From: a virus
Strand: one strand, 5' to 3'
Length of the DNA: 64,000 nt
Virus record (IMG/VR): IMGVR_UViG_3300028734_000011
A model generated the notes under the pieces. It saw only the letters and a list, made by a program, of their open reading frames with translations. It was not told the origin of the DNA and did no database searches. Within the stretch, counting starts at the first letter, position 1. The number at the start of each line of letters is the position of its first letter. A program made the position numbers and the translations under genes. Below are positions 14,023 to 42,787 of the stretch, piece after piece.

Positions 14023-14107
14023 TATGTAGTGCAAAATAGCACGCTTGATACCCAAAAAAGGATAAACAATTAAACTCAAGAGGTCCTGTAAAATCAGGCA
14101 TATTTAG

Positions 14108-14140: not shown

Positions 14141-14177
14141 TTTTGTATAATTAAATAATAATATATAAAAATAAAAA

Positions 14178-17544: not shown

Positions 17545-17889
17545 ATGAAATACTTGAAATGCTTTGAAGATTTATCAAATAGTGATTATAAGAAAGGTGA
17601 TTATGTTTTATTAGATTTAGATAAAATTAGATATAATAATAATGAGAGTGGTGACGTAGATGTAGATGAAAATGGTGATCCTACGCCATTTGATAAATAT
17701 GCATTAATAAATGAAATTACAGTTGAATTGAATAATGGTCAATTTCTATATAATGTCATATTTTATAATTATAATAAAGAAATAAATAATTCATATGGAG
17801 TTCAATCAGATGAAATAATAAGAAAACTAAACTCAAGTGAGATAGAAGTTTTTAATAGAAAAAAAGATGCATTAAAATATAACATATGA
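17545..17889 (+). CDS. cassette-family protein, GDYV subtype (first of array 2)
   Basis: MKYLKCFEDLSNSDYKKGDYVLL... C-term ALKYNI. Confidence 0.55.
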   Translation: MKYLKCFEDLSNSDYKKGDYVLLDLDKIRYNNNESGDVDVDENGDPTPFDKYALINEITVELNNGQFLYNVIFYNYNKEINNSYGVQSDEIIRKLNSSEIEVFNRKKDALKYNI

Positions 17890-18320
17890 AATATATCAAA
17901 AAATTTGAAAATAGATTTACTAACATATTTAAATCTTCTGATGTGAATATGTGGGATGAATATTTAGAAAACGAATTGGAAAATGATCATAGATTTAGTA
18001 AACTTTTTCAATCTGTACATATTGGAAATCTTAAAAGATTTGAATATTTATTACCAAAATATCTAGATAAAATAAATGATATTTATGATGGACAAAATAT
18101 ATTAATTAAGGTTATAATAGAAGATGTTGATTTATATGAACAAAAGAAGATGATTGAATTATTGTTAGATAACGGAATTGATTATAATTTTAAGTTTGAA
18201 GGTAAAACATTTTATGATTTTATGATTGATGAAAAATTAAAAAAATGGTTTGATAAAAAATATCCAGAAATAGTAAAAGAACTTAATTTAAATAAAAATG
18301 CAAATAAATTTAATTTATGA
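17886..18320 (+). CDS. cassette-family protein
   Basis: N-term MKYIKKFENR, C-term ANKFNL. Confidence 0.6.
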   Translation: MKYIKKFENRFTNIFKSSDVNMWDEYLENELENDHRFSKLFQSVHIGNLKRFEYLLPKYLDKINDIYDGQNILIKVIIEDVDLYEQKKMIELLLDNGIDYNFKFEGKTFYDFMIDEKLKKWFDKKYPEIVKELNLNKNANKFNL

Positions 18321-18640
18321 AATATATAAAAAAATTTGAAAAAACAAATAGAGATATAAAAAAAGGAGATTATGCTAAGTTAAATTTTCAAACACTTAAT
18401 TCAGAATTAAATAGTTTTTTTAGAAATAATTTTTGTAAAATTATTGAAACAAATGGATATAGTCCAATATGGTTTAAATTTGGATTTCAATACATACCAG
18501 ATGAACTTGTAGAATTTTTTAATAAGCAAGGTAAATATTATGTATATCATATACAATTGAGTACTGATGATGTAGTAGATTATGCTAGAACAATTGAAGA
18601 TTTAGAACTAAAATTATCAACAAAAAAATTTAATTTATGA
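18317..18640 (+). CDS. cassette-family protein, GDYV-like
   Basis: MKYIKKFEKTNRDIKKGDYAKL... C-term TKKFNL. Confidence 0.6.
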   Translation: MKYIKKFEKTNRDIKKGDYAKLNFQTLNSELNSFFRNNFCKIIETNGYSPIWFKFGFQYIPDELVEFFNKQGKYYVYHIQLSTDDVVDYARTIEDLELKLSTKKFNL

Positions 18641-19203
18641 AATATTTAAAACAATTTGAATTGATAAATTTTTATGATGAAAAAGACATATTTAGATATC
18701 TTTATCACTCAGATTTACCAAAAATAAAAGAATTAGTATCTGAGATACCTAATATTAATCTTAATATTAAAGATAAAAATGGCGATACTCCTTTGATATA
18801 TTCTATAAGATTTAGTTTATTTACAATATTTAAATTTTTAATTGAATCAGGAGCAGATATTAATTATACTGATACATTTGGAAATACACCACTAATACTA
18901 GCTGGAAGAAATAAAAAAGAAGAAATGACACAATATTTAATTGAATCAGGCGCTGATTTAGATATCAGAAATAATGATGGTGAAACAGTATTAATTATGT
19001 GTTCTAACTATAAAGATAAAAAGGCATTTAAAATAATTAAAATGCTGATTGAAAATGACGCTGATTGGAATGTATCTGATGATTTAGGTAATACATTTAT
19101 TGAATATTTATATCCTTTGTATAAAAAAGAAATCATAGAAAAATATCCTGATAAATATAGTAATTTTTTAATGATTAAAAATGCAAATAAATTTAACATA
19201 TGA
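18637..19203 (+). CDS. cassette-family protein, ankyrin-repeat subtype
   Basis: N-term MKYLKQFELI, C-term ANKFNI; 3-4 ANK repeats (DKNGDTPLIYSI..LIESGADINYTDTFGNTPLILAG..LIESGADLDIRNNDGETVLIMC). Confidence 0.7.
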   Translation: MKYLKQFELINFYDEKDIFRYLYHSDLPKIKELVSEIPNINLNIKDKNGDTPLIYSIRFSLFTIFKFLIESGADINYTDTFGNTPLILAGRNKKEEMTQYLIESGADLDIRNNDGETVLIMCSNYKDKKAFKIIKMLIENDADWNVSDDLGNTFIEYLYPLYKKEIIEKYPDKYSNFLMIKNANKFNI

Positions 19204-19580
19204 AATATATAAAAGAAATGAATACTTGGTTTAATAAATCAAAAGAAGGAGATTCAATAGTTTCAAGAATTTTTGATATTGTAAAAGAAGAAAATATTAA
19301 AATTTCACATAACGGAGGATATACAATAGAAATAGATGATTATATATATTCTTTTTCACATATAGGCATTTACTCTGTTGGTAAATATAATAAATCACAG
19401 AGAATAATATCAGGTGAATATAAAGGAATTATAACTGGACATCCTATATCAAATCATGAGTTTTCTAATAAATTATGGAAAGAATTGATAAAAATATATG
19501 ACAATCAACAAAAAAATGTAGATGAAGATTTAGATATTCTTAATCCTGTGACACGTTCTTCAAAAAAATTTAACATATGA
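19200..19580 (+). CDS. cassette-family protein
   Basis: N-term MKYIKEMNTW, C-term SKKFNI. Confidence 0.55.
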   Translation: MKYIKEMNTWFNKSKEGDSIVSRIFDIVKEENIKISHNGGYTIEIDDYIYSFSHIGIYSVGKYNKSQRIISGEYKGIITGHPISNHEFSNKLWKELIKIYDNQQKNVDEDLDILNPVTRSSKKFNI

Positions 19581-19978
19581 AATACATAAAGAAATTTGAA
19601 AGTGAAAGAGACGATTATATAAGAGATGTTAGAAATATTCAAAAAAAGGCTGATAACGATATAAAAAAAGCATATAAGGTCATGAAGAAATATATATTAT
19701 TTCATGATGTGAAGAAATTTATTGAATCTGGTATATATTTCATATTAGAAAAAGATAGAATAGAAGCTTGCTATGATCACACAAATCTTTTTATAGTAAC
19801 AAAGAAATTATATACATATAATTTAAATACAGATAAATTAAAAAATAATAAAAAACAAGGAATGTATTATAATTTATCAGAAACTAGTCTTAGTTATATA
19901 ATGAAAGATTCGGATGATTTACAAGAATTATTAGATTGCCTGCCTTCACTAAAAAATGTAAATAAATTTAACTTATGA
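19577..19978 (+). CDS. cassette-family protein
   Basis: N-term MKYIKKFESE, C-term VNKFNL. Confidence 0.6.
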   Translation: MKYIKKFESERDDYIRDVRNIQKKADNDIKKAYKVMKKYILFHDVKKFIESGIYFILEKDRIEACYDHTNLFIVTKKLYTYNLNTDKLKNNKKQGMYYNLSETSLSYIMKDSDDLQELLDCLPSLKNVNKFNL

Positions 19979-20448
19979 AATATATAAAATCATTTGAAAA
20001 TAATTTTACTGACATATTTAAAAAAAGAAAAAAATTACCTATTGAGGTTATTAATTTTAGTGAAATATTAACTAAAACTATAGAAAAAGCTATAGATAAT
20101 GATTGGGATGTTTATTCAAATATATATGGAATTAATAATAAAAAGTATTACGATATAATAAGTATTTTTGTTGATCCACATGATTTAGATGACGCAGCAG
20201 AAGTTGTAGAGTTACATTATAATCTTAGTAGAAATGCAATTCTTTATTGTTATCATCCAAAAATGAATTTCATGGAAAATATTCAAAATTTTTTATCTGA
20301 TATTATACGCAATAGTTCATGTGAAGATATATCGGTAAAGAATGATAATAGATATTGGATTCCATTAGATAAATTACCTGAAATAATAAATAAAATAAAT
20401 GATACAAATTTCGAATTGTTTAAAATGACAAATAAATTTAACTTATGA
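19975..20448 (+). CDS. cassette-family protein
   Basis: N-term MKYIKSFENN, C-term TNKFNL. Confidence 0.6.
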   Translation: MKYIKSFENNFTDIFKKRKKLPIEVINFSEILTKTIEKAIDNDWDVYSNIYGINNKKYYDIISIFVDPHDLDDAAEVVELHYNLSRNAILYCYHPKMNFMENIQNFLSDIIRNSSCEDISVKNDNRYWIPLDKLPEIINKINDTNFELFKMTNKFNL

Positions 20449-20891
20449 AATACTTAAAACGGTTTGAAAGTATAGTAGAAGTACTAAAGTATAATGATAA
20501 AGGACTTAGCTTACTACCAGAGTTACCAGATACAGCAAAAGAATTATATTGTTATCATAATCACTTGGTCAGGTTACCAAAATTACCAAGTTCATTAGAA
20601 ATATTGTCATGTTTTGGTAATGATTTGCGTGAACTACCTACTTTACCATATACAATAAAAAAAATATTTTGTTATTCAAATAATTTATCTGAATTGCCAG
20701 TATTACCTTATTCATTAGAAATTTTGAATTGTTGTGATAATAATTTAACTGAGTTACCAATTCTTCCAGAGTCACTAACACTATTAGTATGCACTGGAAA
20801 TAAATTACCCTATAATAATTTGTATGAATACAAAAAATGGCAAGAAATAAATATGCCTGATGTTTCGATGTCTAAAAAATTCAACTTATAA
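20445..20891 (+). CDS. cassette-family protein, LPX-type leucine-rich-repeat subtype
   Basis: N-term MKYLKRFESI, C-term SKKFNL; about five 20-aa repeats LPxLPxxLxxLxCxxNxLxx (LPELPDTAKELYCYHNHLVRLPKLPSSLEILSCFGNDLRELPTLPYTIKKIFCYSNNLSELPVLPYSLEILNCCDNNLTELPILPESL) like YopM/IpaH/SspH-type LRRs. Confidence 0.65.
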   Translation: MKYLKRFESIVEVLKYNDKGLSLLPELPDTAKELYCYHNHLVRLPKLPSSLEILSCFGNDLRELPTLPYTIKKIFCYSNNLSELPVLPYSLEILNCCDNNLTELPILPESLTLLVCTGNKLPYNNLYEYKKWQEINMPDVSMSKKFNL

Positions 20892-20892
20892 T

Positions 20893-21273
20893 ATGAAATA
20901 CATAAAAACTTTTGAATATAAAAAGAAAAAATATTATACTATTGAAAATGAATTAATTGATGCTGTATATAATAATCAGTATTCTAAAGTTAAAAGATTA
21001 TTAGATTCTGGATTTGATATTAATAGTACAGTAGTTGGAGAAAAAAATAATGCATTATTATATGCTTCGTATAAAGGATATTGGAGTATTTTATATCTAT
21101 TATTAAAATATAATCCTGATTGGTATGTAAAAGATGATAGTAAAACAGATTTTATTCAATTGATAGAGGAACATTTATATGGAGATAAAGTAATAGAAAA
21201 AATAAGAAAAAAATATTCAGAAAAATATGAAGAGTATTTAATGAAAAAAAACATAGAAAAATTTAATTTATAA
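20893..21273 (+). CDS. cassette-family protein, ankyrin-repeat subtype
   Basis: Track ORF 20860..21273 trimmed to the family start MKYIKTFEYK at 20893; C-term IEKFNL; ANK-like (LLDSGFDINSTVVGEKNNALLYAS). Confidence 0.6.
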   Translation: MKYIKTFEYKKKKYYTIENELIDAVYNNQYSKVKRLLDSGFDINSTVVGEKNNALLYASYKGYWSILYLLLKYNPDWYVKDDSKTDFIQLIEEHLYGDKVIEKIRKKYSEKYEEYLMKKNIEKFNL

Positions 21274-21275
21274 TT

Positions 21276-21587
21276 ATGAAAATTCAAAAATTCGATGAGC
21301 ATCATTTTACTACATTTAATGGAGAAATGTTATTAGCAGGTAAATCTAAATATCCAGTAGGCACTAAAATCAAATTTAAAGATGAAGGTGAATACTTAAC
21401 TGGCACTTTGACACATCCATTTGGTTATTGTAATGGTGATGTTGGAGTGTATTTAGATCAAAAAGGAAAGTATGTGGATGATAGATTGTGCTTAAAAAAT
21501 AGAGAATATATAGTAATTGATGATGATGTTGAAGAATATATGAAAGATAATACATTTAAAACAGATATAAAAAAATTCAATTTATAA
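21276..21587 (+). CDS. cassette-family protein (divergent N-terminus), last of array 2
   Basis: N-term MKIQKFDEHH, C-term IKKFNL. Confidence 0.5.
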   Translation: MKIQKFDEHHFTTFNGEMLLAGKSKYPVGTKIKFKDEGEYLTGTLTHPFGYCNGDVGVYLDQKGKYVDDRLCLKNREYIVIDDDVEEYMKDNTFKTDIKKFNL

Positions 21588-21678: not shown

Positions 21679-21689
21679 ATTGCTTGAGA

Positions 21690-22650
21690 ATACAGCATTA
21701 TAGAGAAGAACTTTAGAAACTATTATTTTTTCTGCTTCTTTTCCACCAATCTTTTGAATTGGTACTCCTCCAATGACGGTCAATTAGATTCACCACTCCT
21801 TTTGTTGTTAGATACTCTCTTAATAATCATTACTCATCTAGAATGCCTTCCAGATTAAATCTTGCGGATTTAGAGAACTTTCTTAAAAATCATGTTAGAC
21901 TTGGGGTCTTTCACGGCTATAACGAATTTCTTCTCATAACTAGTAGTCACCTATCTCCAACAACAGTCGAACTCTTTTCCTTTATTTGTTTATTTTAATT
22001 TTGCATTAAATTTGCAGTTAAAGTTTGTTTTGTGGATGATGAAAGTAGTGGTTCGACAACCAGATTCTCCATCTTTTGAACGGAGCTATACTAAACTACT
22101 CTCTGAGATATCCCTACCTCCATATTTTAAGTTAACTAAGACACTCTCATATCCTTTGGTAAAGATAGGGTAACCTTAATAACAGCACCACCTGTACATT
22201 GGATTACAATCTTATTTACCTTTCGGTTTTAAGCCAACTTTTATATTGGATAACGCAATTACACAACTGGAAATCGTGTTTCTTGCAATAATCCTTCAGG
22301 TTATTCTTATTGATGTTCCCATCTCACTTAGACTACCCACATAGCCCTTGCATTAAACCACTTTCTCTATAGTGTTACCCTCGATAATTAAGGTTTAATG
22401 ATATCCTGATTGTCTGCTCGAACACTAAATGAATATTACTAACAAATTTTTATAACTAATAACTATTATTCACATAATTGAATGTTTTATATAAACTCAC
22501 CGAAGTAAGTTTATTTACGAACAATTATATGTCAAACTATTAGCCTAATAATCTGTTAAATAATAAATCATTTGATGTCGCAAATATATAGAAACAACTA
22601 CATATTCACTTTATCCTACTTTCGTAGTTTATTTAATGACTACAGACAGC
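21690..22650 (-). rRNA. degenerate small-subunit rRNA-like segment (3' half), possibly a pseudogene or captured fragment
   Basis: ORF-free and GC-elevated. The minus strand shows SSU-like motifs in the correct colinear order:
- CAGATTATTAGGCTAATAGT (cf. CAGGATTAGATACCCTGGTAGT)
- TAATTATCGAGGG (cf. AATTGACGGGGG)
- AGTGGTTTAATGCAAG (cf. TGTGGTTTAATTCGATGCAACG)
- AAGAATAACCTGA (cf. GAAGAACCTTACC)
- ACAGGTGGTGCTG (cf. ACAGGTGGTGCATGG)
- TTAGTTAACTT (cf. TTGGGTTAAGT)
- GGAGGTAGGGATAT (cf. GGAGGAAGGTGGGGAT)
- TCTGGTTGTCGAACC (cf. TCTGCAACTCGACTCC)
- GGTGAAT...ACCGTCATTGGAGGAG (cf. GGTGAATACG...CCCGTCACACCATGGGAG)
The universally conserved ACACCGCCCGTC core is truncated and there is no anti-SD tail. 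Confidence 0.4.
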
Positions 22651-26640: not shown

Positions 26641-26988
26641 TTATAAATTGAATTTTTTAGAATCATTAGTTATATTATAAATCTCAGGAGTAGTAAATTT
26701 GTTTGGAAAAAAAAGTTTATCAGATCCGTCATCTTTATCATTAATAACATATCCATTTTCAGTTTTAATTGAAATTAAATCACCTTTTCCTATTGTATCA
26801 ACATCTAAATAATATCTATGTCCATTATTTTCTGAATACTTCACAATAGAATTTATAATAAATATATCACCTTCTTTTAAATAGTTAGACTGGTGACCTA
26901 CATATATAATTTTATCTCCTATTTTTAAATCATTTAAATATTCAGGAGTATAATTTTTTATTTCAAATATTTTAAATTTTGTTATCAT
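26641..26988 (-). CDS. cassette-family protein (minus-strand array 3, MITKFK N-terminus)
   Basis: MITKFKIFEIKNYTPEYLNDLKIGDKIIYV... C-term SKKFNL. Confidence 0.55.
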   Translation of the reverse strand: MITKFKIFEIKNYTPEYLNDLKIGDKIIYVGHQSNYLKEGDIFIINSIVKYSENNGHRYYLDVDTIGKGDLISIKTENGYVINDKDDGSDKLFFPNKFTTPEIYNITNDSKKFNL

Positions 26989-27362
26989 ATATTGAATTTT
27001 TTTGAATTTGATAAATATTCCAAATCTGATTTTTTATCAGATAGAAATTTTATTTCTGTCCTGGTTACAGTTACTGAATTTTCATATTTTTTATTTGGAT
27101 CATTATCGTGACATTGTATTTGAAATGAATGTTTTAAATTATCTGGAATATAATCATATTGAATAACATAATTATCAAAACGTTCTCTTATATTTAGAAT
27201 ATCTATTATCTGTCCAACATTAGATGATGTAAAATCACTTAACATAGGAAATGATTCACTTTCACAAATAACGTAATCTCCTATTTTATAATCTTTAACT
27301 AATATTTTTTTAGTTTTTGGCGATTTTTTTATTGTTTCATATAGTTTAAATTTAGTTATCAT
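26985..27362 (-). CDS. cassette-family protein (array 3)
   Basis: MITKFKLYET...YKIGDYVICE... C-term SKKFNI; ATGA overlaps. Confidence 0.55.
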   Translation of the reverse strand: MITKFKLYETIKKSPKTKKILVKDYKIGDYVICESESFPMLSDFTSSNVGQIIDILNIRERFDNYVIQYDYIPDNLKHSFQIQCHDNDPNKKYENSVTVTRTEIKFLSDKKSDLEYLSNSKKFNI

Positions 27363-27658
27363 ACATTGAATTTATTTGTTTGCTTAATTAATTCCAATTT
27401 GTCTTCTAATATTTTTTTAACAGATGAATATTTAAATACATCTTTTTTATCAATCCAAAAACCATCTTCATGATAATAATCTTTAAAATCAATTTTATAT
27501 TGAGTTTTGCTTTTGTTTATTATTTGAAAAATATTATTACTTATTTTTGTTTTATATTGAATATCATAATTTATACCTTTAAGAACAGGTATAACGTAAT
27601 ATCCAATAGGTATTTCAATATCTTTAACAACGAATTCAAATGTTTTTATATATTTCAT
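27359..27658 (-). CDS. cassette-family protein (array 3)
   Basis: N-term MKYIKTFEFV, C-term TNKFNV. Confidence 0.55.
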   Translation of the reverse strand: MKYIKTFEFVVKDIEIPIGYYVIPVLKGINYDIQYKTKISNNIFQIINKSKTQYKIDFKDYYHEDGFWIDKKDVFKYSSVKKILEDKLELIKQTNKFNV

Positions 27659-27702
27659 AATTTATATTTATATTTTTTAACACCATATATATTAATATAT
27701 AT

Positions 27703-28317
27703 TTGAAAAAAATTATCATGAAAAACTTATCAATATTATTAGTCTTTTTGTTTTTATCAATATTATCTTTTTCTCAAAGGACAAATGTTATAGTTAAAAA
27801 TGATATCTATACAGTATCATATAATGAAGTGTATAAACAGCCTAATTGGGTCATTTACTATATAACTAATGAATCAAAAAATGTATCAAGAGCAGGAATG
27901 AATTTTTATGAAGTACCAGGTATAATCACATCAACGAATGCTGATTATGTTCATAACGTATGGGATAAAGGACATTTAGCTCCTGCTGCAACATTTTCTG
28001 ATACAAAAAATCATTTATATGAAACTTTTTCATACCTTAATTGTTCGTTACAACGTGATTCATTAAATAGAGTAACTTGGGAACATTTAGAGAATTATGA
28101 AAGAACTATATTATTTAAAACTTATAAAAAATTGACAGTAAAAGTAGTTTTAGATTTTTCTGGTAAAATTATTATACTTAAATCTGGTGCTCATGTACCT
28201 AATGGATTTTACAAACAAATAATTACTCCCACAAATGATACATTAACATATTATTTTCCTAACTCTGTTCTACCTCATGATTTTTATTTTTATAGAATAA
28301 AAAATATAAAAATATAA
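27703..28317 (+). CDS. secreted DNA/RNA non-specific endonuclease (Serratia NucA / EndoG family)
   Basis: N-terminal signal peptide (MKKIIMKNLSILLVFLFLSILSFSQ); active-site motif NVWDKGHLAPAA (cf. DRGHxAP); followed by a terminator. Confidence 0.65.
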   Translation: MKKIIMKNLSILLVFLFLSILSFSQRTNVIVKNDIYTVSYNEVYKQPNWVIYYITNESKNVSRAGMNFYEVPGIITSTNADYVHNVWDKGHLAPAATFSDTKNHLYETFSYLNCSLQRDSLNRVTWEHLENYERTILFKTYKKLTVKVVLDFSGKIIILKSGAHVPNGFYKQIITPTNDTLTYYFPNSVLPHDFYFYRIKNIKI

Positions 28318-28321
28318 AAAC

Positions 28322-28355
28322 AAAAAAGTCCAAGTAATTTACTTGGACTTTTTAT
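28322..28355 (+). terminator. rho-independent terminator
   Basis: AAAAAGTCCAAGTAAtttACTTGGACTTTTT. Confidence 0.7.
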
Positions 28356-28419
28356 ATAAATAAAATAACAATCTTATTTTTTTATATATAATATAAACAA
28401 CAAAACACTACAATTATAT

Positions 28420-30063
28420 ATGTTAAGATATGATGATTATAATAAATTAAATGAGGCTTTCTTTCATCGAAGTAAAGATGAGTTAGAAAACCTCATACAT
28501 TCTTTTAAAAGTTTGATTATAAATTTAAAACAATCAATAGACAAAAAATATACTTTAGATTTCTATAAAAATCAAATCAAAGAAGATTTAGAATCATATA
28601 AGAAAAGTCTATTGAACAATTATAATAAAACAACAATTATTAAATTTAAGGATTTATTCAAAGATTTTTTAAATAATGTTGATAACGATATAATTAGGCA
28701 CATGAGATTAAATAAATTTGCGAATGATATATTAAAAATATATTCAATTAACAATTCATTTGATATTAATATAAAGAATGTAGATAGTGTTTTTAAAGCA
28801 TATGCTGATAACGTAGATCGATATATAGACAGTACATATGAATTTTTTTATGACAAAATAGAGACTGACAAATCATATGAGCCTTATAATAAGATAGATA
28901 TAAAAATAAATAAAGTTCCTCTTGATGAATATCAAAAAACTAAATATAAATATCAAATAGAGTTATTAAAATTACAGGAATGGATTACATACAATAACAA
29001 AAAGGTATTAATAATATTTGAAGGTAGAGATGCTGCAGGAAAAGGATCTGCAATTAGAAATATTACTAGGTTTCTTGATCCAAAACATTATAGAGTACAA
29101 ACATTTGGTATTCCGTCAGAAGAAGAAAGTGATAATTGGTTTGAAAGATATGAAAAAGTTTTACCAAAAAATGGTGAAATTGTTTTCTTTGATAGATCTT
29201 GGTATACAAGAGGTTACGTTGAACCAGTGATGAAATATTCAACAGATGATAAATACAATAAATTCATGAAAGAAGTTAATAACTTTGAGGATAAATTAAT
29301 TGATGATGATATTATACTTATAAAAATATGGTTCTCTATATCTCAGGATGTTCAAAAAATGAGATTTGAATTAAGAAAATCCAATCCATTGAAATATTGG
29401 AAATTTAGTAAGAATGATGAGCAAACGTTAGATAAGTGGGATGAGTTCACTAAATACATAAATGACATTTTCAAAAAAACAAATACAAAAGAATCACCTT
29501 GGATAATAATAGATGCTGACGATGAGAATTATTCAAGATTAGAATCATTTAACAGTATAATAAAAACTATTGAAAAAGATAAAGATAATACTAAAGAAGG
29601 CGGAATAAAAGTTGTATTTGAAGATATTGATGGACCTCTTATTCCTTATGATAAAACATCTGATACTGATTATCATAAATTTTTTAATGATCCAGAAAAA
29701 TGGAGTAAAACTGCAATGAGCAATTTAAACAAAATAATAGAAAAAACAGATGCAAAAGTTGTATTATCATCTTCATATAGAGATGATAAACCTTTAAGTG
29801 AGATTGAAAAAATGATGAAAGATGCAGGGTTTAAATATAAAATTTATGATGTTGTTCCAAATGACAAATCAAAAAAACGTGGTTCTGATATAAAAGATTG
29901 GTTGAAGAACAACAAATTTGTTAGCAATTTTATAATTATTGACGATAATAAGCATGACTTATATGATGTGTTCAGTAAAAAACATATTGTTAAAACTACT
30001 CATGAATTAGGTATAACAGATAGTATTGTTGATGAAGCTATTGAAAAATTAAATACCAAGTAA
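28420..30063 (+). CDS. polyphosphate kinase 2 (PPK2) domain fused to C-terminal HAD-like phosphatase domain
   Basis: PPK2 Walker A IIFEGRDAAGKGSAI and Walker B/lid VFFDRSWYTRG; C-terminal ~150 aa carry VVFEDIDGPL (DxDG, HAD motif I), VLSSS (motif II), K...GSD and IIIDDN (motifs III/IV). Confidence 0.6.
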   Translation: MLRYDDYNKLNEAFFHRSKDELENLIHSFKSLIINLKQSIDKKYTLDFYKNQIKEDLESYKKSLLNNYNKTTIIKFKDLFKDFLNNVDNDIIRHMRLNKFANDILKIYSINNSFDINIKNVDSVFKAYADNVDRYIDSTYEFFYDKIETDKSYEPYNKIDIKINKVPLDEYQKTKYKYQIELLKLQEWITYNNKKVLIIFEGRDAAGKGSAIRNITRFLDPKHYRVQTFGIPSEEESDNWFERYEKVLPKNGEIVFFDRSWYTRGYVEPVMKYSTDDKYNKFMKEVNNFEDKLIDDDIILIKIWFSISQDVQKMRFELRKSNPLKYWKFSKNDEQTLDKWDEFTKYINDIFKKTNTKESPWIIIDADDENYSRLESFNSIIKTIEKDKDNTKEGGIKVVFEDIDGPLIPYDKTSDTDYHKFFNDPEKWSKTAMSNLNKIIEKTDAKVVLSSSYRDDKPLSEIEKMMKDAGFKYKIYDVVPNDKSKKRGSDIKDWLKNNKFVSNFIIIDDNKHDLYDVFSKKHIVKTTHELGITDSIVDEAIEKLNTK

Positions 30064-30067
30064 TATT

Positions 30068-30472
30068 ATGAGATATATAAAAACATATGAAAGTATTGAA
30101 ACTTCATCAGATAATAAGATATTCATTATTTTTCTAAATAGTTTTATAACATCATTAGATTATAATATGAAATCAAATCATTCAAGTTCAAATTTAGAAT
30201 ATGATTTTTATTACTACAGTTCAAAATCTGAAAGATCAAAAAAATTATCAATTAGTACTGAGATAGAAGGAGATGATTTATTCATTAGTATATATAATGA
30301 GATGTTTAATATTATTGAAGAATATTTAGAAACTATTTATGGATTAAATTTAATAACATTTGAATCTCGTACATACAACTTTGAAATAAAAGGAAATATA
30401 TATGATGTAATGAGTCAGATAACAAAAGAAGATTTTTATTTAAAAAGAGAATCAAATAAATTTAACATATGA
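30068..30472 (+). CDS. cassette-family protein (first of array 4)
   Basis: N-term MRYIKTYESI, C-term SNKFNI. Confidence 0.55.
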   Translation: MRYIKTYESIETSSDNKIFIIFLNSFITSLDYNMKSNHSSSNLEYDFYYYSSKSERSKKLSISTEIEGDDLFISIYNEMFNIIEEYLETIYGLNLITFESRTYNFEIKGNIYDVMSQITKEDFYLKRESNKFNI

Positions 30473-30813
30473 AATATATAAAAACGTTTGAATCTAAAGG
30501 AATAGATTTATTCAAGGCTATCATAAATGACGATGAAAAATTAGTTAAAAAATTAATTAGGTTTAATGTAGACATAAATATTCAGGATATGGAAGGTCGT
30601 ACACCAATATTTTATGCTGCTAATCATGATTTTATGTCAATTGTTGAGATTCTTATTAAAGCAGGAGCAGATTGGAATATTATAAACAACAAAGGATATG
30701 ATTTTACATATTTGTTGAGTGACAAGCAACTTGAAATAATCAAGAAAAAATACCCAAATGAATATTCTGAATATTTATTAAAAAAAGAAGCTACAAACAA
30801 ATATAATTTATGA
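30469..30813 (+). CDS. cassette-family protein, ankyrin-repeat subtype
   Basis: N-term MKYIKTFESK, C-term TNKYNL; ANK (NVDINIQDMEGRTPIFYAANHDFMSIVEILIKAGADWNI). Confidence 0.65.
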   Translation: MKYIKTFESKGIDLFKAIINDDEKLVKKLIRFNVDINIQDMEGRTPIFYAANHDFMSIVEILIKAGADWNIINNKGYDFTYLLSDKQLEIIKKKYPNEYSEYLLKKEATNKYNL

Positions 30814-31238
30814 AACATTTAAAAATTTATGAGAATTATAAAGATAAAATGAAGTCAAAGAATAAGTTCAATGATATGATAAATAATTATATTCCAGGCT
30901 TTTATATGATATACAAATCTAATATTTATCATTGGAAATATGGTAAAATGAATAACTATTTAGCTTTGTGTAGAATTCTGGAGCCAACAGAATTTGATGA
31001 TGGAATAAGATTAAAAATTGATATAATTTCATATGTATGCGAAATAGATGAAATAGACTTGAAAAACTCAGAAAGAATAAATATAGGAATAAAATATTTA
31101 AATATTAACAGTGACACATTTGAAAGAGTTTTTTTATCATCATCATTAAAAACTGCTCAAGATAAATTTGAAGAATTGAAAAAAACTACTTGTTATCAAT
31201 GGGAGTTAAATAATATGACAAATAAATTCAATATATGA
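30810..31238 (+). CDS. cassette-family protein
   Basis: N-term MKHLKIYENY, C-term TNKFNI. Confidence 0.55.
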   Translation: MKHLKIYENYKDKMKSKNKFNDMINNYIPGFYMIYKSNIYHWKYGKMNNYLALCRILEPTEFDDGIRLKIDIISYVCEIDEIDLKNSERINIGIKYLNINSDTFERVFLSSSLKTAQDKFEELKKTTCYQWELNNMTNKFNI

Positions 31239-31621
31239 AAACATTCAATCAATTCTATGAATCTATAAAAAACAAATATTTTTCTATATATTTCAGAAGA
31301 TATTATGAATCAGGTAGACATAATATATCAGATATATATTACGACATTGAACAAGCAAATAGATATAACATTGAATATGTTCTATTTAATAATACCACTA
31401 AAGGAGATGAGTTTTTTTACTTATATTTATTTCCATGTAATGAATATGAATATAAAATTATTAGTTCTGAGTTAATTGGTATGTTTAATATATCAAGTAT
31501 AACTAATGTAGATTTAAAAAAAGAAGAAAATATAGAATTAATAAAAAATAATAAAAATGCTAATATTATAAATTTAGAAGATGTAAATTTAATAATAAGC
31601 TCTAAAAAATTTAATATATGA
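31235..31621 (+). CDS. cassette-family protein (variant N-terminus)
   Basis: N-term MKTFNQFYES, C-term SKKFNI. Confidence 0.5.
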   Translation: MKTFNQFYESIKNKYFSIYFRRYYESGRHNISDIYYDIEQANRYNIEYVLFNNTTKGDEFFYLYLFPCNEYEYKIISSELIGMFNISSITNVDLKKEENIELIKNNKNANIINLEDVNLIISSKKFNI

Positions 31622-31977
31622 AAACATTTATACAATTTAATGAAATGAGTAATGTTGGTTGTACTGTATTTTTCAAAGTATATTTTAAACTTGAAAATAT
31701 CTATAACCATCTTGATATATTAGATAAAAATAGAATAGATTATGATATATCTTATCATAATAAATTCATTAAAATAGATGCTTATGCATATACGGTAAGT
31801 GAATATAATTTTCTTATCTCAATTGAGTTCAAAATAAATAAAAAGTCACAAGAACTAATAAATCCAAATATGTCACTTGATAATATTAGAAGTATTGTAA
31901 AATCAGATAAAGTTTGGACACCAACAAGTAAAGAAGAATTACCATATCTATCAGATACAAATAAATTTAATTTATGA
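31618..31977 (+). CDS. cassette-family protein (variant N-terminus)
   Basis: N-term MKTFIQFNEM, C-term TNKFNL. Confidence 0.5.
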   Translation: MKTFIQFNEMSNVGCTVFFKVYFKLENIYNHLDILDKNRIDYDISYHNKFIKIDAYAYTVSEYNFLISIEFKINKKSQELINPNMSLDNIRSIVKSDKVWTPTSKEELPYLSDTNKFNL

Positions 31978-32357
31978 AATACTTAAAAAAGTTTGAAAGT
32001 AGAGAGATATCAATAGATCCATATTTAAAAAAAATATATGTATCAAATAACGATTTTACTGATTTATATGATGAAATTAAAACTCTAACTAATTATAAAT
32101 TTGATTTTGAATTATATTATAGAGTAGATGAAAAATACATATTCAATATTATAGTATTTATTAAATCTAATGAGTATACAATGAGTAAATCTATGCATTA
32201 TTATGGTTATATACGTTATGATACATTAAAATCCCATATTAACACATCAGATGCAAATATTATGAAAAACTATTTAAATGAGTTAACAGATTGGACTCAT
32301 ATTAATAATAAAAATGATATTGAAACTGAAATCACTGCAAATAAATTTAATATATGA
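31974..32357 (+). CDS. cassette-family protein
   Basis: N-term MKYLKKFESR, C-term ANKFNI. Confidence 0.6.
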   Translation: MKYLKKFESREISIDPYLKKIYVSNNDFTDLYDEIKTLTNYKFDFELYYRVDEKYIFNIIVFIKSNEYTMSKSMHYYGYIRYDTLKSHINTSDANIMKNYLNELTDWTHINNKNDIETEITANKFNI

Positions 32358-32872
32358 AATACTTAAAAAAATATGAAAAATATGATGCATCTTTAGATTT
32401 GAATTATATATTAGATAGCGAAGTATATTCAGATTCTGATGCTATAAAATTATTAGAAAAGGTGAGATACGCTATTGATAATGATTGTGTTATTGATGAT
32501 ATAAATGTTCATTGGCTTGATAGAACACCTTTAATCGTGTGTTCGATTTCAGAGTGTCATATAAATAATAAAAGTTCTAATTATATTCATATATATAAAC
32601 AAATAGCAAAAGAATTAATAGATGCAGGAGCAAATATAGATTTAGTTGATCATGATGGTAGAAGTGCATTGATATGGGCAGCATCAAGAAAACATTTTGA
32701 TGTGATGGAATTATTAATTGAAGAAGGAGCAAATTGGAATATTCGTGATATATATCATTATGAATTTCATGAATATTTAACAAATGATGAATCAAAAAAA
32801 ATCATGAATAAATATCCTGATAAAAGTGAATTATATACTACTAAAAAAATAGCTAATAAATTTAACTTATGA
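32354..32872 (+). CDS. cassette-family protein, ankyrin-repeat subtype
   Basis: N-term MKYLKKYEKY, C-term ANKFNL; ANK (LIDAGANIDLVDHDGRSALIWAASRKHFDVMELLIEEGANWNI). Confidence 0.65.
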   Translation: MKYLKKYEKYDASLDLNYILDSEVYSDSDAIKLLEKVRYAIDNDCVIDDINVHWLDRTPLIVCSISECHINNKSSNYIHIYKQIAKELIDAGANIDLVDHDGRSALIWAASRKHFDVMELLIEEGANWNIRDIYHYEFHEYLTNDESKKIMNKYPDKSELYTTKKIANKFNL

Positions 32873-33360
32873 AACATATAGTTACATATACTCAGAAAGA
32901 ATTAAATTCTGAATTATTGGAATATTCAGAAAATAAAGCATCAACACAGAAAGTAAGAGAATTGATATTAGATGGTGCTGATGTAAATTGTTTTGATGCT
33001 AGTAAAAGTAGGACACCGTTAATTAAAGCAGTATTAAAATTAAATTACAGTATAATTAAATTATTAATTGAAAATAATGCTGATGTTAATTTAACAAATA
33101 GATTTAATGAAACTTGCTTATTTTTTATTACTCATAATGGTAATTATACATATAAAATATTAAAAAAAAATATTGATAATATTATTGATTTATTAATGAA
33201 ATCTGGAATTGATATGAAAATTGAAAATTTAAAGGGTGAAGATATATTTAGTAAAATTGATACATCAAATCCTATAATATTACAACATATAATAGAAACC
33301 TATCCTGAAAGATATAAAGAATATTTAATGAAAAAAACCGCAAATAAATTCAACATATGA
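32869..33360 (+). CDS. cassette-family protein, ankyrin-repeat subtype
   Basis: N-term MKHIVTYTQK, C-term ANKFNI; ANK (LILDGADVNCFDASKSRTPLIKAVLKLNYSIIKLLIENNADVNL). Confidence 0.65.
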   Translation: MKHIVTYTQKELNSELLEYSENKASTQKVRELILDGADVNCFDASKSRTPLIKAVLKLNYSIIKLLIENNADVNLTNRFNETCLFFITHNGNYTYKILKKNIDNIIDLLMKSGIDMKIENLKGEDIFSKIDTSNPIILQHIIETYPERYKEYLMKKTANKFNI

Positions 33361-33719
33361 AGCACATAAAAACATTTGAAAATAATAAAGACGTACCAAA
33401 AGAGGGTGATTATGTATTAATTAATGCAACAAGTGATATTTACACTGGATTTAAAGTTAATGAATTTATAAATTATATAAATAATCATATAGGTAAAGTA
33501 GTTTCTAAAACATGGGATTATGATCATAATGATATTAGAGTAATTTATGAAGATATGACATATAAAGAAGATAAAGAAATTGGAACATGGTTTGGCTATT
33601 ATAAAGATGGAGATAAATTCATACATTCAAAAGATTTTAAATATTCTCAAGTTAAATTTTATCACAAAAATAAAGATTATTTAGAACAAATGTTGAATGT
33701 TCAAAAATTCAATTTATAA
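33357..33719 (+). CDS. cassette-family protein, GDYV subtype (last of array 4)
   Basis: MKHIKTFENNKDVPKEGDYVLI... C-term VQKFNL. Confidence 0.6.
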   Translation: MKHIKTFENNKDVPKEGDYVLINATSDIYTGFKVNEFINYINNHIGKVVSKTWDYDHNDIRVIYEDMTYKEDKEIGTWFGYYKDGDKFIHSKDFKYSQVKFYHKNKDYLEQMLNVQKFNL

Positions 33720-34769: not shown

Positions 34770-35492
34770 TTATTTTTGAAATGAAGGTTTCAGCCACATC
34801 TTAGTATGATTAAATACATAATCTCTCAAAGTAGGAAATTCATTTAATACTAATATTGTTTTCAATGTATCAAATTTGAAACACTTAGTAAGTTCATCTT
34901 GAATTCTTTCACTTGAAACTACTTTCATTTTTGATTCATAATCATAATTTTTGATAGCAATTTCAATTTCATCAGTCATTCTGAATCCTTTTGTAATACA
35001 AAATCTCACACATCTTAAGATTCTTAGGGAATCCTCATCAAATGTAAGCTCACAAGGTCTTGGTGTTCTAAGAATTCCCATTTTAAGGTCTTTAACTCCA
35101 TCAAACAAATCAATCAATGTACCATTTTCATCAAGTGCCATCGCATTTAATGTGAAATCACGTCTGATTAAATCATCTTCAAGAGTACCAAGTTCTAAAA
35201 TTGGACGTCTTGTACCTTCATAATAACCAATTTCCTTTCTTGCCATTACAAAGTCTGCAGTCAAACCGTCATGTTTATGACCCTTTGGAAATTTTGCTTT
35301 AATTGTAAAACATCTTGGCGTTGAATTATAAATAGTATAACCATTTTTACGTAGCCATAACTCCATATCCATGAATCCAGATTCAACAGATTGATTCTTA
35401 TCATCCAATACAAAAGTAAAGTCAATGTCCTTACAATCAACTCCTAAGATACGGTCTCTGACCGCTCCACCTACTTCATAAATTTTTGGCAT
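34770..35492 (-). CDS. tRNA nucleotidyltransferase (CCA-adding) / poly(A) polymerase family head domain protein
   Basis: Class II nucleotidyltransferase motifs: YEVGGAVRDRILG, DIDF (metal-binding DxD), RRDFTLNAMA; 240 aa, head/neck only. Confidence 0.7.
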   Translation of the reverse strand: MPKIYEVGGAVRDRILGVDCKDIDFTFVLDDKNQSVESGFMDMELWLRKNGYTIYNSTPRCFTIKAKFPKGHKHDGLTADFVMARKEIGYYEGTRRPILELGTLEDDLIRRDFTLNAMALDENGTLIDLFDGVKDLKMGILRTPRPCELTFDEDSLRILRCVRFCITKGFRMTDEIEIAIKNYDYESKMKVVSSERIQDELTKCFKFDTLKTILVLNEFPTLRDYVFNHTKMWLKPSFQK

Positions 35493-35659
35493 AATTTTAT
35501 TTTTATTTAATATATTTAAATTCTAGTTTATCTGAAAATTCATTAATATCCTGAGCCAATGCTATAAGTAAGAATCCTACTAATATAACGCAAGTAAAAA
35601 TTCCAATAAATCCTAATAACAAAGAAAATAATCTTAATAATACTATTATAAATCTCATT

Positions 35660-35902
35660 TCAATTTTTTTTATTTTTTAATAAATTATAAGAAATTATTA
35701 TTATTGTAATTAGAACAAAAAAAGTAAAAAATGTTCCTAATCCAAAAACCACATAATTCTCAATACACTTATAAGTTGAATAATAATGTATATTATATAA
35801 ATCATGAGTAATTTTAATTCCACCAATCATACATGAAAACATATATCCATACATGATAAATAATAAAAAATTAAAAAATAATTTAAAAATTTTTTCTTTC
35901 AT
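35660..35902 (-). CDS. small membrane protein
   Basis: 80 aa with two hydrophobic helices. Confidence 0.35.
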   Translation of the reverse strand: MKEKIFKLFFNFLLFIMYGYMFSCMIGGIKITHDLYNIHYYSTYKCIENYVVFGLGTFFTFFVLITIIIISYNLLKNKKN

Positions 35903-35910
35903 AATATGAA

Positions 35911-36177
35911 TTATTTAAAAATATATCCTTCTGGAAACTTTTTTCTACATTCTGAACCAACTCCCATAACCCATGCATCAGGATATGATTCTTTATCATC
36001 AGCTTTATACATTGCGCCGCCGTATATTGAATTAATGAAATATTTTGGTGTTTTTAATGCTTTACCACAACATGGACAATGCTCCATATTCATATAATCT
36101 GCTCTATCTCTATTAGAATCAAACATATCATAATTATCAATTGTAGGAATATTAATAATATCGTTAGGCTCTTTCAT
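35911..36177 (-). CDS. hypothetical Cys-containing protein
   Basis: 88 aa; MEHCPCCGKALK...GSECRKK; the antisense + ORF 35906..36097 is rejected. Confidence 0.4.
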   Translation of the reverse strand: MKEPNDIINIPTIDNYDMFDSNRDRADYMNMEHCPCCGKALKTPKYFINSIYGGAMYKADDKESYPDAWVMGVGSECRKKFPEGYIFK

Positions 36178-36213
36178 ATTGCTGTTTATTTTTTAATTAC
36201 AATACAAAGGTAT

Positions 36214-36250
36214 ATAAAAAGCCTTGAATATAAAATATTCAAGGCTTAAT
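36214..36250. terminator. bidirectional intrinsic terminator
   Basis: AAAAAGCCTTGAATAtaaaATATTCAAGGCTT. Confidence 0.65.
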
Positions 36251-36270
36251 TTAATATATTTTAATAAAAA

Positions 36271-37209
36271 TTAGAAAAAATTAGAGGCATCAACATATTT
36301 AAAGCCACATCGTTTAGCGAATGTTTTATCACTTGTCAAATCTCCAACCATTATACATTGTGATGGATCAAGTTTATATTTCTCAATGAATTCAACTCCA
36401 AAGCCAACTCCTGGCTTTCTACAATAGCAAGTGATTGGAGGAACAGAGTGCCCGCAATATTTATAATCAATATTAACTCCTAACATTTCATTTGTCTTTT
36501 CAAAACATTCTATTGCAGTCTCATGAGTTAATAATCCTTTTGCTATACCACTTTGATTTGAAACACCAAGTAATATATAACCTTGACTCTGTAATTCTAA
36601 AAGTTTTTCTGTTCTACCAGGAATTATTTCAATATCACTAATATCTGTTGGATAATGTCCTCCACTTTTCGTTAATCTCAAAGTGCCGTCATAATCAAAG
36701 AAGATTGCTTTATTTTTATACTCTGATGGATATCTTTTGAAATCTATTTTTTCTATATCATCAATACCTTCTGATAATTCTGGTGTTTCAAAATGTTTAT
36801 TCATTTTATAAAGTGCAGCTACAGGAAACATATGTGGATCATTAACTTTAGAATAATCACTTAATTCTGTAAATAATCTATCATATTTTCTTATCATTCT
36901 TGTTACCTGATTGAACATACAATCTTCAATCTTTGTGGTGAAATAAAGGCAAATTATATAGTAGTCATATTTTTTTGCTAATTCAATAACTTCAGAACGA
37001 GATAACTTAGTTGTATATGTACCATCTAATACAATATCAACACCATCTATCATCAGTGCTTCAAGTTTCTTATTAAGTGAAATTAATGTACCACCTTCAA
37101 TATCTCTTGATAATAAGGTGTAATTATAATCAACATAAGATTCAACAATACCTGATTTACCTGCAGCAGGTAATCCACAAGTCATAACTAATCTTTTTTC
37201 TTCTTTCAT
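36271..37209 (-). CDS. pnk: polynucleotide 5'-kinase / 3'-phosphatase (T4 Pnk-like)
   Basis: N-terminal P-loop kinase VMTCGLPAAGKSG; C-terminal HAD phosphatase with IFFDYDGTL (DxDGT), LGVSNQSG, CRKPGVG, MVGDLTSD. Domain order kinase-then-phosphatase as in T4 Pnk. Confidence 0.8.
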   Translation of the reverse strand: MKEEKRLVMTCGLPAAGKSGIVESYVDYNYTLLSRDIEGGTLISLNKKLEALMIDGVDIVLDGTYTTKLSRSEVIELAKKYDYYIICLYFTTKIEDCMFNQVTRMIRKYDRLFTELSDYSKVNDPHMFPVAALYKMNKHFETPELSEGIDDIEKIDFKRYPSEYKNKAIFFDYDGTLRLTKSGGHYPTDISDIEIIPGRTEKLLELQSQGYILLGVSNQSGIAKGLLTHETAIECFEKTNEMLGVNIDYKYCGHSVPPITCYCRKPGVGFGVEFIEKYKLDPSQCIMVGDLTSDKTFAKRCGFKYVDASNFF

Positions 37210-37212
37210 TTT

Positions 37213-38427
37213 TTAATACCTATAATTGTTCCATTTATTATTTTCATCTACAACACGGCCGTTTTTATCATAATAATAGTTATTTAATATTACATATACA
37301 GATAATCCTAATGATACAATAAGTATAATTATAAACAACCAAATTTGCTGTGCGCTACTCAAATCAACATCAATATATTCAAAATCTTTAAATTGTTTTC
37401 GTTGCCAATATTTTGGTATATTACTTTCTGTCCAATTAGCTAATTCTTCTAAATTCAATTTAGTTTTACCATTATAGTAACTTCTAAAATTAACTTCAAA
37501 TGTTGGTTTATCACTCCAAGAGAATGCATCTACCCATTGTATATTTTTAGATATAGAATCAAGTCCAAAACACAGAACAAGTTCATTCTTATTACCACCT
37601 AACCAATAACTTTGTTGCTCTTTTACTATTGAACGAGATTTATTATAATAGAACATTAAAAATACTCTTATTTGATTTTTTTGACCATAATATCCATTAA
37701 TATATTGCCAAGATTTTAATTCTTTTAAAGTTGGTTTGTAGCCTAAAAATGGTGATTGATCATTAGTACCACTTCCACTTGAGAACATACCATTAGAACC
37801 ATCATTATTTGAATATAAATTTGGATAATCATATAATCCATCTTCTTTTGCTACTTTCTTTGATATTTTTGAGAATCCAAATATAGAATATGAACTATTA
37901 ATTTTATTTGTATATGAGTGTTCGGTTGTGATAGTTTTTGAGCTATAAATATTATTGTCCCATTTAATATTATACATATTACCATCATTATTATAAAAAT
38001 CTCTGTTCATATCTACAAATATTTTACGAGCATTCCAGGATTTTAATAATTTATAATATTCATCTTTTGATATTTCTTGTTCCTTACCATTTGATAATAC
38101 TTGTGTCCAATGTTCAGGATGGTCATCTCTATGAGAACAATCATATGATTCACTATGAGATTTACCATTACCATCATCTACTGTTCTTGAGCAAGTTTCT
38201 GTAATCCATTCGTCCCAAAATTCATAATCATGTGCCTCAGTAACATAATCACCAAAGTACTCTGTTGCTTGCGTTCTACTATGAATCATCACTGTACTAA
38301 TAATTAGTGTTAGCAATAAGGTTGGTACAATAACTATTAGATATTCCCACCAAACAACTTTTGTTCTGAAAAAAATAAAGATAAAAATAGCAATTACAAT
38401 TGGAATAAAATAAATGATTGTCGTCAT
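37213..38427 (-). CDS. membrane protein (N- and C-terminal TM helices, large central domain)
   Basis: 404 aa; N-terminal IIYFIPIVIAIFIFIFF and LIVIVPTLLLTLIISTV, C-terminal IWLFIIILIVSLGLSVYVIL; 3 nt from the pnk stop. Confidence 0.5.
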   Translation of the reverse strand: MTTIIYFIPIVIAIFIFIFFRTKVVWWEYLIVIVPTLLLTLIISTVMIHSRTQATEYFGDYVTEAHDYEFWDEWITETCSRTVDDGNGKSHSESYDCSHRDDHPEHWTQVLSNGKEQEISKDEYYKLLKSWNARKIFVDMNRDFYNNDGNMYNIKWDNNIYSSKTITTEHSYTNKINSSYSIFGFSKISKKVAKEDGLYDYPNLYSNNDGSNGMFSSGSGTNDQSPFLGYKPTLKELKSWQYINGYYGQKNQIRVFLMFYYNKSRSIVKEQQSYWLGGNKNELVLCFGLDSISKNIQWVDAFSWSDKPTFEVNFRSYYNGKTKLNLEELANWTESNIPKYWQRKQFKDFEYIDVDLSSAQQIWLFIIILIVSLGLSVYVILNNYYYDKNGRVVDENNKWNNYRY

Positions 38428-42451: not shown

Positions 42452-42787
42452 ATGAAATATTTAAAAACATTTGAAATAAATAATAAATTAGAAATTGGTG
42501 ATTATGTAATATGTGAATGGTATGATGGTAAATATAATAATACATATAAAGAATTTAATGATTTCATTAAAAATAAGGTAGGAAAACTTATTGATATTGA
42601 TTATAAATTAATACCAGGTGCTACATATTATATAGTTGAATATGATCATATTCCAGATAATTTAAATAATTTCAAGAGATATAAAAATGAATCTGCATTT
42701 ACTATGAAAGGAGCAGATATAGTTAGATATTCAAAAGATAAATCAGAATTAGAAATTTCTATTAATACAAATAAATTTAACCTATGA
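42452..42787 (+). CDS. cassette-family protein, GDYV subtype (first of array 5)
   Basis: MKYLKTFEINNKLEIGDYVIC... C-term TNKFNL. Confidence 0.6.
   Translation: MKYLKTFEINNKLEIGDYVICEWYDGKYNNTYKEFNDFIKNKVGKLIDIDYKLIPGATYYIVEYDHIPDNLNNFKRYKNESAFTMKGADIVRYSKDKSELEISINTNKFNL

Follow-up and report, generated by a model that had tools for sequence, protein, structure and literature searches.

We analysed a 64,000-nucleotide stretch of viral DNA, IMG/VR record IMGVR_UViG_3300028734_000011 (the window), and focused on a plus-strand gene at 28420..30063 in which a PPK2 polyphosphate kinase is joined to a HAD-type phosphatase. The gene is a single open reading frame (ORF) of 547 amino acids (aa). Its product comprises an all-helical N-terminal domain that matches no family (aa 1-165; 28420..28914), a class-I-like PPK2 domain (aa 169-390; 28924..29589; Pfam PF03976), the short linker TKEGGIK (29590..29610), and a capless (C0-like) HAD phosphatase domain of the HAD_SAK_2 family (aa 398-535; 29611..30024; Pfam PF18143), all on the plus strand. 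An earlier note, made from the sequence alone, had described a PPK2 with a C-terminal HAD domain. Pfam recovers both parts within the one ORF (PPK2, E = 1.1e-72; HAD_SAK_2, E = 1.3e-23), but the note overlooked the conserved N-terminal domain of ~165 aa, so that its two-part layout becomes one of three domains.

The DNA that carries the gene is 23% GC, with small genes tightly packed, and an ORF scan found no internal stop and no change of frame across 28420..30063. An identical 547-aa protein is called on 18 contigs, which come from different samples, assemblers and independent assemblies, and colinear homologues, ~24 in all, extend down to 38% identity. This rules out that two separate genes were merged artificially, whether through a frameshift, the doubt that the earlier note had raised about its own reading, or through sequencing error or chimeric assembly; the artefact explanation is refuted and we assign it a negligible probability. 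None of the three domains has a paralogue elsewhere in the window, and the fusion protein matches no defence-system model in PADLOC.

The PPK2 domain aligns with positions 5-227 of the 229 in the Pfam profile and, at 244.7 bits, clears the cutoff of 22.3 by a wide margin. Among NCBIfam models it scores highest with the class I equivalog TIGR03707, at 269 bits and under its cutoff of 301.8, and over 227 residues the domain is 45% identical to the class I enzyme FtPPK2 of Francisella (PDB 5LL0/4YEG; E = 3e-62). The Walker A and B motifs, which had been called canonical from the sequence, are both in place. Walker A, FEGRDAAGKGS (29017..29049), contains K208, the equivalent of FtPPK2 K66, and its G-R-D-x-x-G-K core is invariant in 24 of 24 fusions. 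Walker B, DRSWY (29191..29205), contains R259 (FtPPK2 R118) and runs into the signature position T263 (29191..29208 in all), and the PPK2 lid module, FELRKSNPLKYWKFSKNDE (29365..29421), contains R319 (FtPPK2 R178). Alignments of the fusion clade show no variation at K208, R259 or R319, in the Walker A core or in the lid. Mutation of K66, R118 or R178 cripples FtPPK2, and K66 is catalytically required (PMC8776046). Judged by these residues, the PPK2 domain should be an active polyphosphate:nucleotide phosphotransferase, of uncertain acceptor preference.

PPK2 enzymes carry a class signature in the residue that follows Walker B: class I has Asn, class II Gly and class III Glu (PMC8776046). Instead of the class I form, DRSWYN, the window protein reads DRSWYT, with Thr263 encoded at 29206-29208. 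Across the 24 fusions the position is Asn in 14, the deepest-branching ones included, Thr in five (the window protein, P0001-P0003 and P0132), Val in four (P0004-P0006 and P0140) and Ser in one (P0147). The Thr or Val signature is found in two sub-branches of the fusion clade, and neither residue is among the class residues listed in PMC8776046.

The C-terminal region is detected by the HAD_SAK_2 profile, as the earlier note had asked of it, over profile positions 1-137 of 139 and at 84.3 bits against a cutoff of 27.5. All four HAD motifs that the note had listed (DIDGP, VLSSS, K and IIDDN) were located in the translation. Motif I, DIDGP (29623..29637), provides the nucleophile D402, invariant in 24 of 24 fusions, and the acid/base D404, a position that holds D in 19 fusions, N in two and H in three. 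The five fusions with His or Asn at this Asp+2 position (DIHG or DING; L028, P0153, P0199, P0002 and P0141) keep the nucleophile, which hints at altered chemistry or lower turnover in these proteins. Motif II is Ser451 in VLSSSYR (29770..29772), invariant in the alignments; motif III is K486-R487 (29875..29880), of which R487 is nearly invariant; and motif IV is D508-D509 in IIDDN (29941..29946), invariant in those fusions that are complete there.

The modelled HAD domain has a Rossmannoid fold of cap type C0, with no cap module. Its top structural neighbours are the capless MDP-1, UBLCP1, SCP1 and Pnkp, which act on macromolecules; in a comparison with predicted viral structures, uncharacterised HADs of phages and giant viruses come closest, with PNK phosphatases far lower. 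The differences for the HAD domain are too small to choose a substrate class. A comparison of the HAD profile with PDB sequences gave no significant match, and we found no characterised member of HAD_SAK_2 / PF18143 in the literature. The family is nevertheless very large: 18,821 cluster representatives match at E <= 1e-3, mostly standalone proteins of typically 145-165 aa. This size rests on an exhaustive profile search; a word-indexed search with the HAD domain alone returned just five proteins. An exact-match scan for a standalone HAD and a fusion in one genome matched only a 45-kb contig that was known before.

The ~24 colinear fusion homologues share 38-90% identity with the window protein and fall into ~12 clusters at 50% identity. 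A large protein database supplied 14 full-length colinear homologues (43-90% identity), all PPK2 plus HAD_SAK_2 and all metagenomic. IMG/VR (L019-L028) contributed L028, at 38% identity, and nine loci that are nearly identical, on contigs of 38-330 kb. The ~12 PPK2-HAD clusters were obtained from an exhaustive HAD-profile search of 1.84 billion cluster representatives, and Pfam confirms the fusion layout in P0132, P0135, P0140, P0141, P0153 and P0199. In a tree of the PPK2 domain, which is indicative as a neighbour-joining, midpoint-rooted tree without bootstrap, all HAD-fused domains form one clade, to which neither the ~55 non-fused viral PPK2s nor the bacterial two-domain PPK2s belong. Since the fused sequences form one clade, the tree suggests a single fusion event, kept through deep divergence.

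Some fusions carry a fourth, C-terminal module. In P0012 (locus L008, 4999-7101) this module is a 2H phosphoesterase of the LigT type, which has both HxT/S motifs and a Pfam score of 23.7 bits against a cutoff of 23.3, and in P0009 and P0010 (P0009 at locus L017, 1052-3190) it is an unrelated domain of ~170 aa with no detectable family. Neither the P0012 extension nor that of P0009 has a significant match among PDB sequences.

The suspicion that PPK2-HAD is not a standard architecture was borne out. No GenBank phage record covers at least 80% of the fusion protein. PHROGs contains no matching PPK2 family, and its phrog_1818 (unknown function) matches the HAD part alone. Of at least 600 PPK2 matches in 185,579 species-representative genomes, the best 80 cover the PPK2 domain only and include no fusion, and our literature search found nothing relevant on a PPK2-HAD fusion, a viral PPK2 or a jumbo-phage polyphosphate kinase. 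In the collections searched, the architecture appears to be restricted to phages. Fusion homologues lie on contigs of 135-577 kb together with genes for IF3, a release-factor fragment, an aminoacyl-tRNA synthetase and the baseplate protein Phage_base_V, and a 404-aa gene of the window (phrog_2087) has relatives in Prevotella Lak megaphages and in the Tenacibaculum jumbo phage pT24. The size and phage genes of these contigs, and the relatives of the neighbouring gene, point to an uncultivated jumbo phage as the source of the window, with a host that is probably in Bacteroidota. No Shine-Dalgarno sequence precedes the fusion gene, which fits a Bacteroidota host. Both catalytic domains are of kinds already known; what is new, and undescribed in the sources searched, is the three-domain architecture and its apparent restriction to jumbo phages.

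The N-terminal domain (first 165 residues) has no family match, and a fold search returned generic helical bundles only. It is not consistently basic, so charge gives no case for binding of polyphosphate or nucleic acid. A divergent extension of 130-155 aa also precedes PPK2 in almost all non-fused viral PPK2s, and the N-terminal domain appears to be a phage-specific helical accessory of PPK2, judging by sequence and modelled fold; a role in oligomerisation or in targeting would be a guess. Viral PPK2s as a group are numerous. The huge phages LR745206, LR756501 and LR756502 (634-735 kb) encode one, in two of which the match spans the N-terminal extension and there is no HAD, and IMG/VR holds 347 related stretches. 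Like the fusion, the non-fused viral PPK2s (the 388-aa ORF of LR756502 and ~70 IMG/VR loci) are phage-encoded, carry an N-terminal extension and are 37-55% identical to it in the best segment; unlike it, they have no HAD, form a separate PPK2 clade, and have an extension that a profile of the fusion clade barely sees. At L059 (6402-9455) and L062 (6675-9140), PPK2 lies inside proteins of 822-1018 aa that start with DUF4314 and contain long unknown regions, architectures that look like polyvalent proteins.

Upstream of the fusion gene lies an Endonuclease_NS nuclease gene (27703..28317, plus strand; Pfam E = 7.6e-25), which serves here as context only. The earlier note had taken it for a secreted nuclease that would liberate nucleotides for the fusion protein. 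Its product does have a signal-peptide-like N-terminus (judged by eye only), but the functional link did not stand: a terminator separates the two genes, the nuclease is not a conserved neighbour, and the fusion protein has no export signal of the kind seen in the nuclease. The terminator is a palindromic hairpin (28323..28353) with a 14-bp stem and a T-run behind it; nothing else in 27300-30600 resembles a terminator, and 0.2 such sites would be expected there by chance. The promoter-like site ATAACA-16-TATAAT (28365..28392, plus strand), 5' of the fusion gene, is a consensus match only, of a kind common in this AT-rich DNA (42 found versus 34.5 expected). The nuclease is absent from L016, the otherwise syntenic locus of an 81%-identical homologue, and from all other homologue loci examined.

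Genes of RNA metabolism lie 5-7 kb from the fusion. The minus-strand stretch 34770-38427 encodes a CCA-adding enzyme (240 aa; 34770-35492), three tiny ORFs, a PNKP (312 aa; 36271-37209; AAA_33+PNK3P; PDB 1YJ5, E = 3.5e-17) and the 404-aa phrog_2087 protein, and is likely an RNA-repair cluster by its gene content. The 404-aa protein adjoins PNKP, where an RNA ligase might be expected, and has no assignable fold. We rejected the 404-aa (window), 390-aa (L009) and 435-aa (L004) neighbours as one conserved partner of the fusion, such as an RNA ligase; they are mutually unrelated and have no Pfam or PDB match. At other loci, P0003 adjoins a CCA-adding enzyme, thymidine kinase and PhoH; a CTP_transf_like gene lies near P0012 and also beside the standalone HAD of Vibrio phage nt-1; a second, standalone HAD_SAK_2 gene lies 2 kb from P0007; and in Shewanella phage 1/4 a standalone HAD_SAK_2 gene sits between genes for peptidyl-tRNA hydrolase and tRNA nucleotidyltransferase. 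The associations of fusion and HAD loci with RNA and tRNA genes are recurrent but loose.

The window holds several further features. A full-length GOLLD RNA, a large structured non-coding RNA of phages, matches Rfam RF02032 at 21681-22103 (minus strand; 274.8 bits, gathering score 150, E = 2.5e-77), 6 kb upstream of the fusion gene. It stands at the head of a stretch that is nearly free of called genes in the syntenic contigs L001 (4.5 kb, with two 42-aa ORFs only) and L016 (3.6 kb, with none). A 99-nt Rfam tRNA match at 60932-61030 (minus strand; 36.8 bits, E = 4e-4) is not called by ARAGORN and may be an intron-containing or atypical tRNA. A shared N-terminus 'MKYIKxFE' and/or C-terminus 'NKFN[IL]' marks some 45 small ORFs of 63-190 aa, several of which have ankyrin repeats; they stand in arrays at 4300-9409, 17545-21587, 26641-27658 (minus strand), 30068-33719 and 42452-45314. 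Because the shared termini meet head-to-tail with 4-nt ATGA overlaps, the junctions should form a conserved DNA element of ~30 nt, as read from the protein motifs; it could be a translational-coupling or cassette-recombination signal, not a protein motif. The same start is seen in the standalone HAD_SAK_2 genes P0121-P0125 of related phages and in ORFs beside the PPK2 gene of LR756502. At 12460-15047 (plus strand) we observed, consecutively, a microbial-type PARG-like gene, an HD-domain gene with weak similarity to Cas3/Cas10 HD models (PADLOC), and an NAD-dependent epimerase/dehydratase gene; the PARG-like and HD-domain genes are candidate counter-defence genes. The window also encodes an MgtC-family protein (40934-41557, minus strand), a radical SAM protein (46216-47109, plus strand), a cytidylyltransferase-like (NMNAT-like) protein (54044-54661, minus strand) and a calcineurin-like phosphoesterase (61745-62446, minus strand).

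At the level of its domains, the protein is very probably what its profiles and modelled folds indicate, namely a catalytically intact, class-I-like PPK2, a capless Mg-dependent HAD phosphomonoesterase and a helical N-terminal domain. Characterised relatives of the PPK2 domain make nucleoside triphosphates by passing phosphate from polyphosphate to nucleoside diphosphates. For its biological role and for the substrate of the HAD domain our confidence is low, all substrates being deduced. During infection the PPK2 domain would tap the polyphosphate store of the host and regenerate ATP, GTP or deoxynucleoside triphosphates, and the fused HAD would take phosphate off a nucleotide-derived phospho-end. 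Its likeliest targets would be RNAs or tRNAs that cleavage has left with a 3'-phosphate, or else nucleoside 3'-phosphates. Such a protein would follow the kinase-phosphatase logic of T4 Pnkp-type enzymes for end healing or nucleotide salvage, with polyphosphate as its fuel, and could sustain translation and the nucleotide pools while the host attacks, as part of takeover or counter-defence. We put this forward tentatively: the complete statement, of a three-domain jumbo-phage enzyme that combines polyphosphate-driven synthesis of nucleoside triphosphates (NTPs) with a phospho-end phosphatase for salvage or counter-defence, is plausible and falls somewhat short of an even chance. The RNA-end part of it draws on the 2H domain of P0012, the PNKP and CCA-adding enzyme of the window, the CCA-adding enzyme beside P0003, the HAD locus of Shewanella phage 1/4 and the structural neighbours of the HAD domain.

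Several findings weigh against this proposal. At the class signature the window protein has Thr where class I has Asn. The homologue loci share no conserved gene neighbour, and no RNA ligase was recognised in any of nine homologue neighbourhoods. The genome already has a canonical PNKP, which leaves no obvious need for a second end-healing enzyme. Only one homologue has the 2H domain, with a marginal score, and phage 2H domains have been argued to act outside RNA repair (PMC5512222). Standalone HADs that are 67-73% identical to the fused HAD occur in related phages away from any PPK2, so the two activities can work apart. Finally, most viral PPK2s are without a HAD, and a HAD gene adjoins just one of 69 non-fused loci (L054).

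The pairing can also be explained in other ways. In line with the earlier note's idea of nucleotide pool remodelling, both domains could work on free nucleotides, with PPK2 making (deoxy)nucleoside triphosphates from the diphosphates with polyphosphate, and the HAD acting as a nucleotidase that clears unwanted nucleotides, for example particular 5'-(deoxy)nucleoside monophosphates, pNp or alarmones, to suit the replication of the phage. The known substrates of PPK2 are free nucleotides (PMC8776046), the domain is 45% identical to FtPPK2, and nucleotide genes occur at related loci (thymidine kinase and PhoH at P0003, CTP_transf_like at P0012 and in nt-1). However, dephosphorylating the products of the protein's own kinase would be a futile cycle, nucleotidase activity is documented for no HAD_SAK_2 member, our search having turned up no literature on the family, and the supposed feeder nuclease is exported, lies in a separate transcription unit and is not a conserved neighbour. 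The HAD family, its structural neighbours and the 2H domain of P0012 speak no less for a chemistry of RNA ends or of counter-defence, and we consider such remodelling of nucleotide pools rather unlikely. It is also possible that the domains share no substrate and were fused only for co-expression or co-delivery, as in the polyvalent counter-defence proteins of phages, so that PPK2 restores NTPs that host defences have depleted and the HAD independently disarms some other phosphorylated host molecule or signal. Other viral PPK2s are indeed fused to unrelated parts (the DUF4314-led L059 and L062; L048 and L051; the extensions of P0009 and P0010), the HAD is mostly standalone, with a 67-73% identical standalone copy in related phages, and the window is rich in likely conflict genes (PARG, the HD domain and many ankyrin proteins). 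Against this, the PPK2-HAD order and the short linker are kept in one clade over deep divergence, which suggests selection on the pairing, and in L054 a HAD gene directly adjoins a non-fused PPK2. An unconnected multi-tool of this kind seems unlikely to us.

A more radical possibility is that PPK2 is itself a polyphosphate-dependent polynucleotide 5'-kinase and the protein an ATP-independent analogue of Pnkp that heals both RNA ends. The layout mimics T4 Pnkp, P0012 mimics the kinase and 2H set of tRNA ligases, the nucleotide-contacting signature residue is altered to Thr or Val in parts of the clade, and PPK2 has the same P-loop kinase fold as the thymidylate-kinase group (PMC8776046). Yet the known residues that handle nucleotide and polyphosphate are conserved, the domain is 45% identical to a bona fide nucleoside diphosphate kinase, the class I Asn is kept in 14 of 24 fusions, among them the deepest-branching, and a 2022 review of PPK2 shows no PPK2 acting on polymer ends (PMC8776046). 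We regard a 5'-kinase as very improbable. A broader version, in which PPK2 either phosphorylates 5'-OH ends or feeds NTP in cis, and the HAD removes a 3'-phosphate or 3'-pyrophosphate from cleaved or toxin-modified tRNA, is improbable; were it true, jumbo phages could repair the RNAs of translation after defences have drained ATP.

If the proposed polyphosphate-driven NTP synthesis and phospho-end phosphatase activities hold, the fusion would be a clear example of a phage that exploits host polyphosphate as a source of energy and phosphate, through a dedicated, phage-specific architecture. Viral PPK2s are numerous and mostly have a private N-terminal domain, yet they are absent from PHROGs and we found almost no literature on them. 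The fusion also offers a handle on the substrate of a very large viral HAD family (>18,000 cluster representatives), and a polyphosphate-driven kinase-phosphatase would be relevant to enzymologists who regenerate NTP with PPK2.

The fusion resembles several known systems in part. With the class I PPK2s (FtPPK2, 5LL0/4YEG; S. meliloti SMc02148, 3CZQ) it shares Walker A, Walker B, the lid and the equivalents of K66, R118 and R178. The cellular class I enzymes are single-domain proteins of ~270-300 aa, whereas the fusion has a 165-aa N-terminal domain and a HAD on its flanks and Thr for Asn. The two-domain class II enzyme PA3455 (PDB 3CZP), a polyphosphate:AMP phosphotransferase, likewise has a large non-catalytic N-terminal partner domain, but that partner is a degenerate PPK2, with Gly as the signature, and the partner in the fusion is an unrelated helical bundle. 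Polyvalent proteins are large, with 2-15 conflict-related domains, and are often tied to virion or transfer modules (Iyer et al. 2017); that paper mentions neither PPK2 nor a phosphatase domain. The fusion has three domains and no hallmark polyvalent module, and some of its viral PPK2 relatives carry DUF4314. The HAD domain shares its minimal capless Rossmannoid core with MDP-1, UBLCP1 and SCP1 (FCP/SCP group), but at 10-19% identity, with no sequence-level homology, and those enzymes act on eukaryotic phosphoproteins or sugar phosphates.

The multidomain RNA-repair 'Swiss Army Knife' proteins, in which end-modifying enzymes are joined with an RNA ligase or a nucleotidyltransferase, were reportedly described by Burroughs and Aravind in 2016, and the HAD family is said to have been defined there. 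The HAD domain of the fusion belongs to the Pfam family named after these proteins (PF18143 description). P0012, which joins a kinase fold, a HAD and a 2H domain, also recalls the healing modules of tRNA ligases (Trl1 kinase and 2H cyclic phosphodiesterase). Unlike the Swiss Army Knife and tRNA-ligase modules, the fusion has PPK2 as its kinase, and neither an RNA ligase domain nor an adjacent ligase gene was found. From T4 Pnkp (PDB 1LTQ/5UJ0) it differs in both catalytic parts. Its kinase is a PPK2, not an ATP-dependent enzyme of the PNK clade, and the AAA_33/PNK profiles match 36271-37209 instead; its HAD belongs to HAD_SAK_2, not PNK3P. All characterised PPK2s use polyphosphate as the donor and a nucleotide as the acceptor. 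The order of parts is nonetheless that of T4 Pnkp: both proteins are phage-encoded, and in both a kinase of P-loop fold is followed by a capless HAD of the DxDG type.

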